From Methanomassiliicoccaceae archaeon (GTDB taxonomy: Archaea > Thermoplasmatota > Thermoplasmata > Methanomassiliicoccales > UBA472), in NCBI GenBank assembly GCA_963789555.1, contig CAWBKY010000007.1:101999-165998 (forward strand): a stretch of DNA of 64,000 nt, in the 5' to 3' direction. Under the pieces are notes generated by a model. The model saw only the letters and a list, made by a program, of their open reading frames with translations. It was not told the DNA's origin and did not search any database. Of this stretch, positions 58,221-63,039 are shown piece by piece (position 1 is the stretch's first letter; each line of letters begins with the position of its first letter). A program made the position numbers and the translations under genes.

Positions 58221-59042
58221 TTGAAGCTAGCCGACCTTCTCGCGGAGGATGTGGGCGATGGGGACATCACCACCGAGCTCTTGATCGGCGAAGAGAGGGG
58301 GGAGGCGTCCATCACCACTGGCGAGGACTGTGTGCTAGCGGGATTGCAGGAGGCGACGGACCTGTTCCGCCACCTCGGCCTGGAGACCAGGACCGATGTG
58401 AAGGACGGACAGCGCCTGGTCAAAGGCCAAGAGGTCCTGGTCATCTCTGGCCCGCTGCGCCTCATCCTTCGCGCCGAACGAGTGGCATTGAACTTCCTGA
58501 TGCGTATGAGCGGCATCGCCTCCTTGACCCGCTCCTTGGTGGACCAATGCCAGAGGGTCAATTCCTCGGTTCGCATCGCCGCCACCCGGAAGACCACCCC
58601 CGGTTTCCGCCTTTACGAGAAGAAAGCCGTACGTCTGGGCGGAGGTGACCCACACCGGTCCCGACTGGACGACGGGATACTCATCAAGGACAACCATTTA
58701 GCGGTGGTGGGTTCGATCACCCAAGCGGTGCAAAGGGCCAAATCGCTCTCATTTTCGAAGAAGGTCGAGGTGGAGGTGGAGACGCTGGGAGGGGCCGAGG
58801 AGGCTGCCAACTCCGGTGCCGACATCATCATGCTCGACAACATGGGCGTTTCCGAAGCGGAAAGGGCCTACCGGGCCATCAAGGCCATCGACAAACGTAT
58901 CGTGGTCGAGGTATCTGGAGGGATGACCCCGCAGAACGTCGCCTCCTATGCCAGGTATGCGGACGTAATCTCCATGGGATACATAACCCATTCAGCCCCG
59001 GCCATCCAGTTCAGTCTGCACATCGTCAAGGTGAGCCGCTGA
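58221..59042 (+). CDS. nadC: nicotinate-nucleotide pyrophosphorylase (quinolinate phosphoribosyltransferase)
   Basis: DVGDGDITT, ERVALNFLMRMSGIAS, TRKTTPGFR, GGGDPHR, IMLDNM. TTG start. Confidence 0.9.
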   Translation: MKLADLLAEDVGDGDITTELLIGEERGEASITTGEDCVLAGLQEATDLFRHLGLETRTDVKDGQRLVKGQEVLVISGPLRLILRAERVALNFLMRMSGIASLTRSLVDQCQRVNSSVRIAATRKTTPGFRLYEKKAVRLGGGDPHRSRLDDGILIKDNHLAVVGSITQAVQRAKSLSFSKKVEVEVETLGGAEEAANSGADIIMLDNMGVSEAERAYRAIKAIDKRIVVEVSGGMTPQNVASYARYADVISMGYITHSAPAIQFSLHIVKVSR

Positions 59043-59871
59043 TCGGCCCCAGCTTGATGCGATGGTAGCGCAGCCCGATCTCCTCCGGAGTCGCCCCGAA
59101 GGCCAACGCCATGAGCTCGGAGAGGTGCAGGACCGGCAGACCCTCTTTCTGTCGTAGGTCGAACTGGCTGAAGCAGAACGGACATGGCGTCAATATGCAA
59201 TTCGCTCCGGAACGGCGGTAACTCGAGCACACGTCCTCCAATATGCCGGTGGAGACGACATCGTCCACGCTGGCCACTCCGCCCCCGCAGCATTCCGGCC
59301 AAACCTCATCGTTCACTACCTTCGACCCTAGCCAGCGGGCGATGTCCCCCAACATCTTCGGGGCATAGGCCCTCTCGCGCAGGTCCGCCTTGCTTGGTCT
59401 GAGCACATGACAACCTGAGTGCGGGGCAAGCTTCAAGGCGGACAGGTCCCTCCTAACATGGCTCTTTAGACTCTCTTCCCCCTTTTCGTGGGCCAGGTCC
59501 AAAAGGTGGCGTACCTTGACCCCGCCCCGGTACTCCCGACCCAGGTCAGAAAGGATGAGGTTCACCTTATCGCGCAGCGCAGGCTCCTGCAGCGCGTGCC
59601 TTGCCTCCTGGAACGAGAGGTAGCACCCATTGCACAGGGTCAGCACGTCCCTTCCTTCCATCTCTGCGATGGCCAGCATGCGGGCCACCGTCACCAGCCA
59701 GGTGTCCGCCGCCATGGAGCGCAGACCTATCGGTTCGACGCAGCAGGTGGCCCCCGGCAAGGGCACGTGGTCGACCCCCATCGAGTCCAGCGCGATCAAG
59801 GACGCCTTCTCCAGATGGGGCACCCTGGTGGGGATGAGGCACCCTTTGAATAGGTAGTACCTACCGCTCAA
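59026..59871 (-). CDS. hdrB: heterodisulfide reductase subunit B
   Basis: YLFKGCLIPTRVPHLE, CCG-domain cysteines GATCCVEPIG and WPECCGGG, PCPFC. 11-nt overlap with hdrC. Confidence 0.85.
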   Translation of the reverse strand: MSGRYYLFKGCLIPTRVPHLEKASLIALDSMGVDHVPLPGATCCVEPIGLRSMAADTWLVTVARMLAIAEMEGRDVLTLCNGCYLSFQEARHALQEPALRDKVNLILSDLGREYRGGVKVRHLLDLAHEKGEESLKSHVRRDLSALKLAPHSGCHVLRPSKADLRERAYAPKMLGDIARWLGSKVVNDEVWPECCGGGVASVDDVVSTGILEDVCSSYRRSGANCILTPCPFCFSQFDLRQKEGLPVLHLSELMALAFGATPEEIGLRYHRIKLGPISGSP

Positions 59872-60430
59872 GAGGGGCCCTCCCCAAAGTGGTAGCTTTG
59901 ACCAGCGCGGCCAGCTCCTCGAGGGTCTTGGGGTCGGAGGTCAATTCTGTCAGGCCCAGCTCCTTGCGCAACTTCTTGGTGAGGCCACTGTTGGGGAAGG
60001 CCAGCCCGGTCCTCATGAACAGCTTGGCCTCCTCCTGGAACGACTTGGGGCAGTGACCGGCCAAGGTCGCCCGGCCCCTCATCTCCTGGATGCGGTCGGA
60101 CGGTGAGACCCCCAGTTGGCACCTTTCCGTGCAGGAGTTGCACATGGCGCAGAGCCAGAGCTCCGGGGCATCGGGCCTGAGGAGTGAGAGGTGCAGCTTG
60201 ACCATGGTGTCCGCAGGCTTGATCCCACCATGCCTCTGACTGGGGCATACCCCGGCGCACTGCCCGCATTGATGGCATCGAGCCAGCTCCCCGAACGGAT
60301 CGGGTCCTTCCGACTCTGTCCCAATTGCCTCTATGCGCACGCCCCCAGTAAGGCGCTGCCACATTAAGCCGTTTATTGTCCCTCCGTCGGTAGGTCCGAT
60401 GTGCTTCGCCCGCCTGATGTGGCTCGTCAA
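59861..60430 (-). CDS. hdrC: heterodisulfide reductase subunit C
   Basis: Two ferredoxin-like clusters CHQCGQCAGVCP and CAMCNSCTERCQ. About 190 aa, immediately upstream of hdrB. Confidence 0.8.
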   Translation of the reverse strand: MTSHIRRAKHIGPTDGGTINGLMWQRLTGGVRIEAIGTESEGPDPFGELARCHQCGQCAGVCPSQRHGGIKPADTMVKLHLSLLRPDAPELWLCAMCNSCTERCQLGVSPSDRIQEMRGRATLAGHCPKSFQEEAKLFMRTGLAFPNSGLTKKLRKELGLTELTSDPKTLEELAALVKATTLGRAPLER

Positions 60431-60464
60431 AAGAATGATATCCGGGCCCGACCTACGCTAACGC

Positions 60465-60653
60465 ATGAGCATCAGGATCGAGGACAACGACTGCCAGTTC
60501 TGTGGCAAGAAGGCCAAACAGTTCTGCTTCGCCGCCTTCATCTGCGAGAGCCAAGAATGCGTGGACAAGGCCCGCGAAGAGCGAGGTGGTCCCGGCGGCC
60601 ACATGAAGAAGAAGGCGCATCCGGAGCCCATCGTGTTCGACGAAGACGGATGA
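60465..60653 (+). CDS. small Cys-rich (putative zinc-binding) protein, 62 aa
   Basis: MSIRIEDNDCQFCGKKAKQFCFAAFICESQECVDKAREERGG... has 5 Cys in 23 residues and strongly GC3-biased codons like bona fide genes. It is antisense to the gap between hdrD-like and hdrC. No family recognised. Confidence 0.45.
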   Translation: MSIRIEDNDCQFCGKKAKQFCFAAFICESQECVDKAREERGGPGGHMKKKAHPEPIVFDEDG

Positions 60654-60656
60654 GCA

Positions 60657-61784
60657 TCATTTCTGGAGACGGGAGGCGGCGAGCGAGAAGAGGTCCACCA
60701 GCTCGATCCTCGGCCGGCCCACATACGTACCCATCTCCTTCTGTGCGCAGCTCAGGTGGATGAGGCATTTCGGACAGGCGGTCACCAGCCTTTCAGCCCC
60801 GGTGGACCGCGCCTCCTCCAACCTGGTGAGCTGCCATGACTTGGTGACGCGGTCGCATTGGGCGAAGCAGGTGCTGCCGCAACAGGCGGAGCTTGCCCCG
60901 CTCCGCCCCATCTCCACGAGCTCACCCATGCCCTCGATGAGCGTCCTCGGCGCCGAATAGATGCCTGAACCCCTGCCCAGGCGGCATGGGTCCTGGTAGG
61001 TGAGCCTCTCCGTCGAACTAGAAAGTTCCAGGCGTCCTTCCCGCAGCGCCGCCTCCAACAATTGGCTCAGGTGCACCACCTCGAAGCCCAGGTCGCCGAA
61101 CCTTTCCTGGTACACCCGGCCGATGGTATGATGGCATTCCGGGCAATAGGTGACGATGGTACGCACCCCGCTCTTTCGGATGGCACAGAGGTTCTGCTGG
61201 GCCAATCGATCGAAGGTCTCCATCTCTCCCAGCCAATAGGCGTCGTGGCCACAGCAGCGCTCCTCAGGGATCAACCTGGGCTTGATGCCGATGGCGTTGA
61301 GCAGTCTCACCGCCGACCGTGGCATGTCCGGAAGGTCGGGTTGGAAATCACGGAAAACGACGTCCAGCACAGGAACGCACCCTACGAACAACGCCACCTC
61401 GGACCGTTCGTCGAACTGAAGGTCCGGAGCGGTCCAGCTGTGCCTATGCCCATGGCCTTTGCCGGCGGCGTCCAGGTCTCGGATGGCGGACACGATACCA
61501 GCATGGGTGCGTATCGGCGCGTCTATGCCATTGCGCTCCACCCGCACCTCGCGCATGAAGCGGTGGAAGTCCACCCCCTGCGGGCATATCGTTGTGCATG
61601 CGGCGCAACCCATGCAGGACCAGAGGTCCAGACCCTCCGACCCACCTCGATCGGCGAACTCCTCCATGAACTTGCGCGGCGAGAAACGCCTCGCACCATG
61701 CGCCGCCGGACAGGAATAGGTGCAATGGCCACAGGAGATGCAGTCATAGGCCCGGTAGCGTCTGGCCGCCTCAAGGCTGGTCAC
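60657..61784 (-). CDS. hdrD: HdrD-like Fe-S protein (2x[4Fe-4S] ferredoxin domain fused to two CCG domains; GlpC/LutA relatives)
   Basis: CISCGHCTYSCP and CMGCAACTTICP, then VGCVP...EERCCGHD and YQDPCRLGR...SACCGS...ACPKC. Confidence 0.75.
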   Translation of the reverse strand: MTSLEAARRYRAYDCISCGHCTYSCPAAHGARRFSPRKFMEEFADRGGSEGLDLWSCMGCAACTTICPQGVDFHRFMREVRVERNGIDAPIRTHAGIVSAIRDLDAAGKGHGHRHSWTAPDLQFDERSEVALFVGCVPVLDVVFRDFQPDLPDMPRSAVRLLNAIGIKPRLIPEERCCGHDAYWLGEMETFDRLAQQNLCAIRKSGVRTIVTYCPECHHTIGRVYQERFGDLGFEVVHLSQLLEAALREGRLELSSSTERLTYQDPCRLGRGSGIYSAPRTLIEGMGELVEMGRSGASSACCGSTCFAQCDRVTKSWQLTRLEEARSTGAERLVTACPKCLIHLSCAQKEMGTYVGRPRIELVDLFSLAASRLQK

Positions 61785-62190
61785 AGCCCACCTCCGGCAG
61801 CGGCCCTAGGGAACGGACGAGCTCGACGAACTCCCGGCAGGTGCTGGCGAAGAGGGCACCCTCGCCGGCCGAGATCCAACGCAACAACAACCTCTCCCTG
61901 CCAATGCCCAAGCGTTCCAGGATGTCTCCGGTGTCGGCGATCCGCTGCCTGGCGCGCTCGTTGCCTTTGAAGTAATGACAGTCGCCGATGTGGCAGCCCA
62001 GGACCATGACGCCGTCTGCCCCGTTGCGGAAGCAGCGCAGGACATAGCTGGGCTCGACCCGCCCGGAGCACATCACACGCACCACCTTGACATTGGGCGG
62101 GTACTGGAAACGGCTCACCCCGGCCAGGTCGGCCCCGGCGTAGGCGCACCAGTTGCAACAGAAGGCCACCACGCTCGGCTCCCAGGTCAT
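61771..62190 (-). CDS. mvhD: methyl-viologen-reducing hydrogenase delta subunit family protein (MvhD)
   Basis: VVAFCCNWCAYAGADLAG...VRVMCSGRVEPSYVLRCFRNGADGVMVLGCHIGDCHY. I chose ATG 62190 (GGAGG 9 nt upstream). The ORF opens at 62298. 14-nt overlap with the hdrD-like gene. Confidence 0.8.
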   Translation of the reverse strand: MTWEPSVVAFCCNWCAYAGADLAGVSRFQYPPNVKVVRVMCSGRVEPSYVLRCFRNGADGVMVLGCHIGDCHYFKGNERARQRIADTGDILERLGIGRERLLLRWISAGEGALFASTCREFVELVRSLGPLPEVGCDQP

Positions 62191-62331: not shown

Positions 62332-63039
62332 ATGCCCCTGCGAATCGTCGGGTTCAATCGCACCTCCTTATTGGATTGGGATGGGAAGGTGGTCGCCACC
62401 GTCTACCTCCAGGGCTGCAACTGGCGCTGCGGTTTCTGTCACAACGTCGAGCTGGTGCAGCCCACTTCCAGCCTGGAGGAGGTGCCGTTCCCTGTCATCG
62501 AGGAATACGTGCACAGCAACAGTGAGTTCCTGGACGGGGTGGTGATCACCGGGGGTGAGCCTACCTTGCATGAGGAACTTCCCGATCTGATCCGCAGGTT
62601 CCGGAAGATGGGGATGAAGGTCAAGCTGGATACCAATGGCTCCCGACCAGAGATGCTCTCCGACCTGATCGGCTCGGGTTCCCTGGACTTCGTGGCCATG
62701 GACATCAAGGCCCCCTTGAACGAGAAGTACTCCGAGCTCGCCAGGGTCGATGTGGACCTGGCTGCGGTCAAGCGCTCGATAGCCCTGATCATGGACCATA
62801 TGCGCGATTACGAGTTCAGGACCACCGTGGTGCCTTTCTACCTCGATACGAAGGACATCGAGGCCATCGCCTCGTTCATAGGCGGGGCGAAGAAGTATGC
62901 CCTGCACCAGTTCGGGAACAGGAGCACCCTGGACCCGCGACTCGGCGTGATGGAACCTTATCCGGACGCCAAGGTGATGGAGATGGCGGAGCGGGCCAAA
63001 CCGTACGTTCGTAAGGTGGTCGTGAGGGGGACCAGCTGA
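62332..63039 (+). CDS. radical SAM activating enzyme (NrdG/PflA-activase family)
   Basis: SLLDWDGKVVATVYLQGCNWRCGFCHN (CX3CX2C), ITGGEPTL, KLDTNGS. No glycyl-radical enzyme partner in the window. Confidence 0.75.
   Translation: MPLRIVGFNRTSLLDWDGKVVATVYLQGCNWRCGFCHNVELVQPTSSLEEVPFPVIEEYVHSNSEFLDGVVITGGEPTLHEELPDLIRRFRKMGMKVKLDTNGSRPEMLSDLIGSGSLDFVAMDIKAPLNEKYSELARVDVDLAAVKRSIALIMDHMRDYEFRTTVVPFYLDTKDIEAIASFIGGAKKYALHQFGNRSTLDPRLGVMEPYPDAKVMEMAERAKPYVRKVVVRGTS

Follow-up and report, generated by a model that had tools for sequence, protein, structure and literature searches.

The mvhD gene and the overlapping hdrD-like gene of a Methanomassiliicoccaceae archaeon belong to a known enzyme system, and their usual hdrA neighbour has been lost here. 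The pair is conserved, is under purifying selection, carries HdrB-like ligands and is part of a family linked to hdrA. Conserved adjacency, natural gene fusions, the score of the predicted complex, the HdrB-like cysteines and low dN/dS values together indicate that it is a real MvhD-HdrD unit. We see about an even chance that this unit is a cartridge that reduces disulfides for HdrA-type flavoproteins, orphaned in this organism and served in trans by a single long HdrA. The pair was studied in a 64-kb stretch of DNA (hereafter, the window) from a MAG that is only 80% complete.

The original prediction placed mvhD, the hdrD-like gene, a spacer, hdrC and hdrB in this order on one strand (here the minus strand), and both the order and the coordinates held when re-checked. 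The mvhD paralog (of the 'mvhD3' type; 61771–62190, minus strand) codes for a [2Fe-2S] protein of 139 residues, of the MvhD/FlpD family (PF02662), and overlaps by 14 nt the hdrD-like gene (60657–61784, minus strand), which has a GTG start and codes for 375 residues with Fer4 and two CCG domains as defined by Pfam. Beyond a spacer of 226 nt (60431–60656) lie an hdrC paralog ('hdrC2'; 59861–60430, minus strand) and an hdrB paralog ('hdrB2'; 59026–59871, minus strand; 281 residues with two complete CCG motifs), which overlap by 11 nt. The spacer has the length originally given but is not empty, being nearly filled by a Cys-rich ORF of 62 codons on the plus strand (60465–60653), in a conserved position between the two hdr units. 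A divergent gene for an NrdG2-type radical-SAM activase (62332–63039, plus strand; TIGR02495, 196.8 bits, above the cut-off) is found upstream and a convergent nadC, for quinolinate phosphoribosyltransferase (58221–59042, plus strand; PF01729 and PF02749), downstream; these are the conserved neighbours on the two sides in Methanomassiliicoccales loci, and we used nadC only as a synteny marker, as we did the activase gene, which is outside the system. As predicted, hdrA, hdrE and mvhAG are absent from the window; no hdrA adjoins the pair, which is bordered by nrdG upstream and by the small ORF and hdrCB downstream.

The 62-residue product had no match in Pfam or NCBIfam. It was found by tblastn at the same position in eight Methanomassiliicoccales loci (54–65% identity), and comparison with a congeneric genome gave 85% identity and a dN/dS of 0.09; to judge from its sequence, it is a conserved gene under selection. 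Because this gene lies on the opposite strand, mvhD-hdrD and hdrC-hdrB form two separate transcription units. The start of hdrC2 is uncertain: homology begins near residue 20 of the ORF that starts with TTG at 60430, and the ATG at about 60364 (M23), with a product of about 167 residues, is a possible true start. HdrC2 scored 92.8 bits against TIGR03290 (equivalog cut-off 160) and HdrB2 215 bits against TIGR03288 (cut-off 345), whereas the canonical HdrC and HdrB1 encoded on contig C10 of the same genome reached 202 and 399 bits, respectively; since both fall below the cut-offs, we rejected their assignment as canonical CoB-CoM heterodisulfide reductase subunits. HdrB2 and HdrB1 share 37.5% identity; HdrB2 falls in a separate Methanomassiliicoccales clade of its own (support 100) and has a dN/dS of 0.12.

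MvhD3 matches PF02662 over its full length (profile positions 1–123 of 123; 177.8 bits, E 1e-52) and, in a profile search, chain D of the solved MvhAGD-HdrABC complex (5odc_D; E 1e-58), and is thus a clear member of the family. Its Cys12, Cys41, Cys66 and Cys71 are invariant in 23 pair-linked homologs and are candidate ligands of the [2Fe-2S] cluster. The gene has a dN/dS of 0.09. Although the protein is 58% identical to MvhD1, the mvhGA-linked MvhD of the same genome, a role as the hydrogenase subunit of MvhAGD was rejected, as mvhA and mvhG are absent from the window and from all 80 related loci; the mvhGA genes of this genome adjoin the other mvhD, on contig C9.

The HdrD-like protein (dN/dS 0.12; AF2 model with pLDDT 89.8) consists of an N-terminal HdrC-like 2x[4Fe-4S] domain (Fer4, residues 12–71) and, fused to it, a double CCG domain that resembles HdrB. 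All eight ferredoxin cysteines (C15/18/21/25 and C57/60/63/67) and all ten CCG cysteines (C136, C177, C178, C214 and C217; C267, C301, C302, C337 and C340) are present, the latter in two motifs of the form C-X31-40-CC-X34-36-CXXC, both of which keep the 'CC' and the terminal Cys of the CxxC (C217, C340); on this sequence evidence the ligand set is HdrB-like, with cysteines of the catalytic type. In MvhAGD-HdrABC of hydrogenotrophic methanogens (PDB 5ODC and relatives), the counterpart of the N-terminal domain is HdrC (E 9e-20) and that of the CCG half is HdrB, whose full cysteine set is present in both motifs of the window protein. Unlike that system, HdrC and HdrB are here fused in one chain, the locus is devoid of hdrA and mvhAG, the prediction places MvhD in direct contact with the HdrB-like part, and a canonical hdrA-mvhDGA cluster and hdrC1B1 are present elsewhere in the genome.

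The best PDB matches were, in order, mycobacterial EtfD (9OJN; profile E 2.7e-53, Foldseek E 4e-16, TMq 0.78), LutA, which was compared by fold alone and matches only the CCG half, and HdrB. Features of EtfD are five transmembrane helices with heme, a first CCG motif with CT and a coordinating His in CxHC, and its clusters, a linear [3Fe-4S] and a noncubane one, are shielded and non-catalytic (PMC13083937). The window protein, in contrast, lacks a membrane domain, carries CC in its two motifs and shows Glu where EtfD has the His; with 375 residues, no extra domain, and CC and CPEC in place, it was rejected as a membrane CCG protein of the EtfD/HdrF type. With the HdrD of membrane-bound HdrDE in Methanosarcinales and the 'HdrD' of the Fpo-like/HdrD model for Methanomassiliicoccales (WP_019178460; PMC7374477, PMC4153887) it shares its architecture, a soluble protein of about 370–410 residues with a 2x[4Fe-4S] ferredoxin domain and two CCG domains, but it lies in a different clade and its partner is MvhD, not HdrE or Fpo. 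Identity is 25–26% to the 411-residue HdrD of M. luminyensis-like genomes, to the LarA-linked HdrD of this genome and to Methanoperedens HdrD, and, by accession spacing, the protein is not among hdrD1-3 of Borrel et al. (2014). Its clade (SH-aLRT 100) stands apart from HdrE-linked HdrD, from other Methanomassiliicoccales HdrD paralogs and from GlpC/GlcF. An HdrE-linked identity was rejected, as a branch with SH-aLRT 100 separates the protein from the one HdrE-linked reference in the tree, Methanoperedens HdrD, whose neighbour is a multi-pass membrane protein lacking a Pfam match and taken for HdrE. There is no membrane HdrE gene beside the hdrD-like gene, its neighbours being mvhD and the small soluble ORF, and the order Methanomassiliicoccales lacks hdrE (PMC4153887). 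A grouping with GlpC, GlcF or, as compared by fold, LutA was likewise rejected: in the tree the E. coli proteins GlpC and GlcF lie outside this clade, NCBIfam scores to these families were 59–63 bits against cut-offs of 278–333, and no glpAB, glcDE or lutBC genes are neighbours.

In the 80 related loci, mvhD was scored when present within 350 nt upstream on the same strand. It directly precedes hdrD in 69 of the 73 loci with room upstream, so that the pair is well conserved elsewhere, and pair-bearing loci span at least ten bacterial and three archaeal phyla. Of 63 complete pairs, 61 have a distance from the mvhD stop to the hdrD start of between -20 and +61 nt, most often -4; the other two have 141 and 170 nt. 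In three Methanomassiliicoccales genomes, from three families, the two genes are fused in single ORFs of 533–545 codons with FlpD, Fer4 and two CCG domains, each preceded by an hdrA-like gene. Together with the complex prediction described below, these observations support the original view of a coupled MvhD/HdrD-like module. Its extension, that no bifurcating HdrA is involved, is disfavoured: hdrA lies directly upstream of mvhD in 54/64 related loci and downstream of hdrD in 52/68. It is further weakened by two Methanomassiliicoccales relatives that keep an hdrA of about 1000 codons in front of the pair. In one of them, L043, the order nrdG / hdrA-mvhD-hdrD / 62-codon ORF / hdrCB / nadC reproduces the synteny of the window, and its HdrD falls in the same clade as the window protein. 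Over its full length, the long HdrA of our genome shares 63% identity with the pair-linked HdrA of another locus, L078; with the pair-linked HdrA/HdrL of bacteria it shares 42–47%.

Clusters of the hdrA/hdrL-mvhD-hdrD kind have been described in the sulfate reducer Desulfobacterium autotrophicum (PMC2702500), in Syntrophobacter, as Hdr/Flox with HdrD (PMC5947623), and in ANME, with 'HdrD-like' proteins (PMC9012536; PMC12054007), and are assumed to encode bifurcating or confurcating Hdr complexes (PMC2702500; PMC5947623; PMC9012536; PMC12054007). The window HdrD is in the same protein clade and follows mvhD in the same order; unlike those clusters, the window pair has no flanking hdrA, stands alone amid unrelated housekeeping genes and is found in a methanogen, with CoM and CoB.

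Structure prediction of MvhD3 with the HdrD-like protein gave an ipSAE of 0.89 (best control, 0.10), a mark that 58 of 80 solved complexes and 2 of 110 mismatched pairs also attained; these counts apply only roughly because the alignments were our own. At least 87% of contacts recur between the runs, with partner pLDDT of at least 79. The predicted interface on HdrD (residues 95–116, 138–143, 174 and 196–201) adjoins ligands of the first CCG cluster, C136 and C177/178. In solved Mvh-Hdr complexes, MvhD touches HdrA and MvhG; we know of no description of a direct contact between MvhD and HdrB or HdrC in them, and the predicted interface is thus without experimental precedent.

Elsewhere in the genome, mcrA is present, an hdrA (1012 residues)-mvhD-mvhG-mvhA cluster is found on contig C9 (156878–162931), the canonical hdrC1B1 lies on contig C10, and an Fpo-like nuoD lies about 27 kb past the end of the window. 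The HdrA on contig C9 is the only long one, and complete M. luminyensis-like genomes also carry a single copy. In the reading we favour, MvhD, with one [2Fe-2S] cluster, and the HdrD-like protein, with [4Fe-4S] sites of two kinds (two cubane, and two noncubane of the HdrB type), would form one soluble heterodimer. In HdrA-type complexes of flavin-based electron bifurcation, this heterodimer would be the high-potential end, at which disulfide is reduced. From a presumably ancestral, and usual, order hdrA-mvhD-hdrD(-hdrA-hdrA-mvhD), the dedicated hdrA would have been lost in this Methanomassiliicoccaceae lineage, leaving an orphaned but selected pair. We infer that the pair most probably docks in trans onto the single long, double-flavin HdrA encoded with mvhDGA, as a catalytic cartridge that replaces or supplements HdrB1C1, and would then reduce CoM-S-S-CoB or a related disulfide with electrons ultimately from H2. 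Several points speak against this: the operon of the pair in this genome has no hdrA, the long HdrA already has canonical HdrB1C1 available, the predicted MvhD interface is one not known from the solved complexes, the pair is absent from the 114 genomes of one methanogenic family considered below, and the genome is only 80% complete.

It is rather unlikely, but worth weighing, that the pair reduces or oxidises, with or without HdrA, a thiol/disulfide other than CoM-S-S-CoB, as its bacterial hosts would require and as the original prediction also allowed. Candidate substrates would be a DsrC/TusE-type di- or trisulfide bound to protein, or some other disulfide of low molecular weight, and the role would lie in sulfur metabolism or redox homeostasis, not in methanogenesis. 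Bacteria make up most of the clade (Thermodesulfobacteriota, Chloroflexota, Zixibacteria, Ignavibacteriota, Calditrichota and others), which to our knowledge are without CoM and CoB, no bacterium being known to us to make either; this also speaks against the heterodisulfide as substrate. In addition, the adjoining HdrB2 and HdrC2 score below the heterodisulfide reductase cut-offs, and the pair is accessory in the order (57/201 genomes, compared with 182/201 for mcrA). The Methanomassiliicoccales copies, however, form an old clade of their own (support 99), with time to adapt to the abundant heterodisulfide of their hosts; no dsrC, tusE or lbpA-like gene lies beside the pair in the window; and the catalytic cysteines are the same set as in HdrB.

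That MvhD3 wires the HdrD-like protein directly to a donor other than HdrA, be it MvhAG (from which a soluble H2:heterodisulfide oxidoreductase that does not bifurcate would result), or ferredoxin, or else the Fpo-like complex, appears unlikely. The pair is conserved and selected without an hdrA neighbour here and in M. luminyensis-like genomes, the predicted MvhD site beside the first CCG cluster could be an electron entry that bypasses HdrA, and MvhD3, given its identity to MvhD1, may still bind MvhG. Yet the related loci lack mvhA and mvhG and mostly have hdrA directly upstream, each fusion gene follows an hdrA-like gene, and the non-bifurcating reaction would waste energy that the organism is thought to conserve. 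Moreover, in one methanogenic family that belongs to the order and likewise depends on Fpo-like plus HdrD, the pair was found in 0 of 114 genomes, and it is thus dispensable for methyl-reducing methanogenesis; the Fpo partner that has been studied is a different HdrD paralog, WP_019178460 (PMC7374477). That the pair is a decaying or functionless remnant of an operon whose hdrA, kept by relatives, is missing here is hardly credible and effectively refuted by dN/dS values of 0.09–0.12 for mvhD, hdrD and hdrB2, by the retention of 18/18 cluster-binding cysteines in HdrD and 4/4 invariant ones in MvhD, and by the synteny of the orphan arrangement across several genera of the family.

A bolder reading, possible though doubtful, is that MvhD, instead of being a hydrogenase subunit, serves as a dedicated [2Fe-2S] adaptor bound directly to the CCG domain of an HdrD-type reductase, where electrons would gain a second point of entry beside the catalytic noncubane cluster. 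The two proteins would make up a portable cartridge that is fused in some relatives and has no HdrA of its own in Methanomassiliicoccus-type methanogens. Such a cartridge could swap with HdrBC on the long HdrA, or draw electrons from MvhAG or another donor. If true, this would be an unrecognised third heterodisulfide-reducing route in Methanomassiliicoccales energy metabolism.

The window locus is an orphaned methanogen variant of a known, uncharacterised type of Hdr cluster. On the reverse strand, mvhD (62190..61771; 139 aa; PF02662, E 1e-52 in Pfam) overlaps by 14 nt the gene for an HdrD-like protein (61784..60657; 375 aa, GTG start), in which a dicluster ferredoxin domain (residues 12-71) is followed by two CCG domains, the cysteine-motif domains of HdrB/HdrD-type proteins (Pfam/NCBIfam). 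In NCBIfam the HdrD-like protein matches best, at 123 bits, the C-terminal part of TfrB and, at 114 bits, LdhH, in both cases far under the cut-offs. On the same strand lie a divergent hdrC paralog, hdrC2 (60430..59861), and a divergent hdrB paralog, hdrB2 (59871..59026), which overlap by 11 nt and score below the equivalog cut-offs (93 bits vs 160 for TIGR03290, and 215 bits vs 345 for TIGR03288, respectively). A gene for an NrdG2-type radical-SAM activase is found upstream of mvhD, in divergent orientation, and nadC downstream of hdrB2, in convergent orientation. The coordinates and the Pfam/NCBIfam searches bear out the gene order, both overlaps and the 226-nt gap of the original prediction; the gap between the HdrD-like gene and hdrC2 has that length, but it is not an empty spacer, as most of it is filled by an ORF for a Cys-rich protein of 62 aa on the opposite strand (60465..60653, + strand). 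This ORF is kept at the same place in Methanomassiliicoccales relatives (dN/dS of 0.09 and 85% identity relative to a congeneric genome) and shows a CxxC...C...C...C pattern before a tail rich in Gly and Lys; neither Pfam nor NCBIfam places it in a family. Because of its conservation in the spacer, we regard mvhD-hdrD and hdrC-hdrB as separate transcription units. Judging from dN/dS against the congeneric genome, mvhD (0.09), the hdrD-like gene (0.12) and hdrB2 (0.12) are functional. The window copies of hdrC and hdrB are intact; hdrC and hdrB of the nearest public locus, in a Methanomassiliicoccaceae MAG with 98% identity (L041:7362-8759), and hdrB of the congeneric genome (L156:3816-4659), are each in two frames, likely as a result of long-read assembly indels.

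A scan for the HdrD-like protein, with one genome per species, gave at least 597 matches, of which the best 80 loci were analysed. These belong to Thermoplasmatota, Methanoperedens, other archaea and at least 10 bacterial phyla (Thermodesulfobacteriota, Chloroflexota, Zixibacteria, Ignavibacteriota, Calditrichota, Eisenbacteria, Gemmatimonadota and others). Within this set of 80, the pair is kept across many phyla, with mvhD no more than 350 nt upstream of hdrD on the same strand in 69 of the 73 loci with room for it; the distance from the mvhD stop to the hdrD start is -20 to +61 nt in 61/63 complete pairs, most commonly -4, and 141 and 170 nt in the remaining two. An hdrA-type gene directly precedes mvhD in 54/64 of these loci and follows hdrD in 52/68; hdrC-hdrB are additionally present in 16/80, and mvhA or mvhG in 0/80. 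In Methanoperedens, for example, the order is hdrC-hdrB-hdrA-mvhD-hdrD-hdrA-hdrA. Published but uncharacterised examples of mvhD-hdrD clusters with hdrA come from D. autotrophicum (PMC2702500), S. fumaroxidans (PMC5947623) and ANME (PMC9012536, PMC12054007). Seven of the 10 loci lacking an upstream hdrA are Methanomassiliicoccaceae loci with the synteny of the window, and two Methanomassiliicoccales loci retain an hdrA of about 1000 codons before the pair, in the orders nrdG / hdrA-mvhD-hdrD / small ORF / hdrC-hdrB / nadC (L043) and hdrA-mvhD-hdrD-hdrA (L078). In Desulfobacterota, the mvhD upstream of hdrD carries an in-frame TGA at codon 68 (L053:5585-6004, L066:4360-4779, L071:5550-5966 and L092:5576-6004), a position corresponding by offset to the invariant Cys66 of the window MvhD and probably read as selenocysteine, which is consistent with the selenoprotein MvhDs reported in D. 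autotrophicum (PMC2702500); these rows were excluded from two of the alignments (A3 and A4).

That MvhD and the HdrD-like protein form one module, as originally predicted, is upheld by the conserved adjacency, by natural fusions and by complex prediction. Three Methanomassiliicoccales genomes, from three families, encode MvhD::HdrD-like fusions of 533, 535 and 545 aa with FlpD, ferredoxin and two CCG domains (L153:9398-10999, L154:9179-10786 and L155:1928-3565), each following an hdrA-like gene of 581-588 codons; in L153 and L154 the fusion has next to it, in divergent orientation, another hdrA-mvhD-hdrD-hdrA cluster whose genes are unfused. At least 13 further open frames of 530-630 aa were found in the survey of the order. 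With alignments built from the same 23 loci, the predicted complex of MvhD with the HdrD-like protein has an ipSAE of 0.89, vs 0.10 for the best of three controls; the ipSAE mark is reached by 58/80 solved complexes and 2/110 mismatched pairs, counts that apply roughly here since the alignments are our own. The prediction runs share at least 87% of contacts, with a partner pLDDT of at least 79. We know of no solved complex in which MvhD contacts HdrB or HdrC, so the high score is unlikely to be carried over from a structure already solved. The modelling supports, short of proof, direct binding of the two proteins. The predicted interface on HdrD comprises the linker 95-116 and residues 138-143, 174 and 196-201, on either side of C136 and C177/C178 in the first CCG motif.

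In a tree of 93 rows, obtained by a quick IQ-TREE search with several long-branched outgroups and one HdrE-linked reference, the mvhD-linked HdrD-like proteins form a single clade (SH-aLRT 100). This clade stands apart from E. coli GlpC and GlcF, from HdrC+HdrB concatenates, from the other Methanomassiliicoccales paralogs (411-aa, LarA-linked and GlpC-like; see below) and from the Methanoperedens HdrD that adjoins a membrane protein. The latter, encoded upstream of that HdrD, gave no match in a Pfam scan and is taken for HdrE-like from its visibly multi-pass, hydrophobic sequence. Within the clade, the copies from syntenic Methanomassiliicoccales loci group as a subclade (support 99) with L043 inside, and the simplest reading is that hdrA was lost from the locus within this subclade. 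When compared with HdrB1, the canonical copy, and with HdrB of the bacterial and Methanoperedens hdrA-mvhD-hdrD clusters, the Methanomassiliicoccales HdrB2 proteins form a long-stemmed clade of their own, whose deeper placement is weak (support 77). The MvhD tree, based on 130 columns, has poor resolution: the MvhDs linked to HdrD separate only in part from the downstream ones (4 changes), and no clear orthologous group emerges.

The genome (1.88 Mb in 10 contigs, 80% complete), of which the window is C7:101999-165998, carries mcrA, an Ech-like hydrogenase and, about 27 kb beyond the end of the window, an Fpo-like nuoD. As originally noted, neither hdrA nor mvhAG is near the pair. No hdrA lies just outside the window in the same operon. 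A single long hdrA (1012 aa; C9:159893-162931), followed by mvhD-mvhG-mvhA, is found at C9:156878-162931, the canonical hdrC1-hdrB1 at C10:37402-38845 (202 and 399 bits, above the equivalog cut-offs), and an hdrC-hdrB-hdrA2::mvhD cluster on contig C8. The long HdrA shares 63% full-length identity with the HdrA that precedes mvhD-hdrD in L078, and 42-47% identity with the bacterial HdrA/HdrL encoded upstream of the pair; it is therefore of the type usually encoded with the pair. Environmental Methanomassiliicoccales (G002-G004; loci L078, L043 and L045) have 3-5 long, double-flavin HdrA paralogs, several on one contig, one with mvhDGA and the others with mvhD-hdrD, and M. luminyensis-like genomes have one long HdrA only, linked to mvhDGA. 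Because the long HdrA is of the pair type and no second one occurs here or in M. luminyensis-like genomes, we favour a reading in which the pair would use the single long HdrA in trans. The suggestion of a module that works without a bifurcating HdrA draws on the absence of hdrA at this locus; it is not favoured, given the hdrA directly upstream in most related loci, although it may still hold for this genome. A divergent, split HdrA-like cluster, with ORFs of 472, 274 and 156 aa followed by mvhD, lies 60 kb from the pair on the same contig (C7:222805-226073, L127) and has a counterpart in the M. luminyensis-like genome; at about 30% identity to the long HdrA, and likewise to the pair-linked HdrAs, it is not favoured as the partner.

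The AF2 model of the HdrD-like protein (pLDDT 89.8) has as its best PDB matches, in order, mycobacterial EtfD (9OJN), LutA and HdrB, with profile matches to EtfD (E 2.7e-53), HdrC (9e-20) and HdrB (1.6e-8). EtfD is non-catalytic because Thr stands in for the second Cys of its first CC pair, with the coordination completed by the His of CxHC; the displaceable bridging ligand of HdrB is the Cys that ends each CxxC (Cys81 and Cys234) (PMC13083937). Unlike EtfD, the window protein keeps the CC pair in each motif and carries Glu216 in place of the His, and its bridging positions, as in HdrB, are occupied by cysteines, C217 and C340; position 217 is Gly in 7/23 relatives. The ligand set is therefore HdrB-like and, as read from these residues, compatible with disulfide reduction.

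For M. luminyensis, hdrB2 (WP_019176125), hdrC2 (WP_019176126) and mvhD3 (WP_019176130) are listed in Table 6 of Borrel et al., 2014 (PMC4153887), the only source we found to give these accessions, and the neighbouring HdrD-like gene is unmentioned there. The order in the syntenic M. luminyensis-like chromosome (L042), hdrB, hdrC, one gene, small ORF, hdrD-like and mvhD, matches the accession spacing, from which we infer that the HdrD-like gene is about WP_019176129; as such, it is absent from the hdrD1-3 of those authors (PMC4153887). The HdrD of the Fpo-like/HdrD model, assayed by Kroeninger et al. (WP_019178460, Table 1; PMC7374477), is a different paralog. We found no discussion of the mvhD-linked copy in the literature on Methanomassiliicoccales, and in the comparative-genomics papers that we read the unit is given in part (mvhD3, hdrB2 and hdrC2) or is absent. 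The M. luminyensis-like genome has four HdrD-type genes: the mvhD-linked one, a 411-aa stand-alone one, for which no ortholog was found in the 80%-complete window MAG, a LarA-linked one and a GlpC-like one with FAD-protein genes. In the window genome, a second HdrD paralog (C10:84359-87801, equal to L121:2360-5802; 368 aa) resembles TfrB (245 bits) and shares only 26% identity with the window protein. Its neighbours are a LarA-family nickel-pincer racemase-like gene and a dihydropteroate-synthase-like gene, and HdrD is again paired with LarA in the M. luminyensis-like genome (L148); instead of a heterodisulfide reductase, this paralog may be a CCG oxidoreductase linked to 2-hydroxyacids. A GlpC-like CCG paralog (C9:225437-226457) is broken across two reading frames, by a frameshift or an assembly error; the M. 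luminyensis-like genome has the ortholog together with glpA/glpB-like FAD genes.

Across 201 Methanomassiliicoccales genomes, the window-type HdrD-like protein (E <= 1e-60) was detected in 57, with 29/46, 1/1, 4/4, 0/1, 10/10, 12/24 and 0/114 by family; mcrA is present in 182/201, including 103/114 of the family without the pair. The pair is therefore an accessory of the larger-genome families and dispensable for methyl-reducing methanogenesis itself. To explain how the order conserves energy, models invoke HdrABC-MvhAGD and a single 'HdrD' that is coupled to the Fpo-like complex, and nothing else; this locus adds one more reductase unit under selection, found in the environmental families (Methanomassiliicoccus among them) and equipped with an MvhD of its own and a divergent HdrCB pair. 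More widely, hundreds of uncharacterised hdrA clusters, in sulfate reducers, syntrophs, Chloroflexota and ANME, share MvhD-HdrD as their conserved core. Of the new findings, the most useful are the natural fusions and the direct contact predicted between MvhD and HdrD, which together give a concrete, testable picture of the wiring of hdrA-cluster complexes, and a cultured methanogen with an orphan pair offers a simple system in which to test it.
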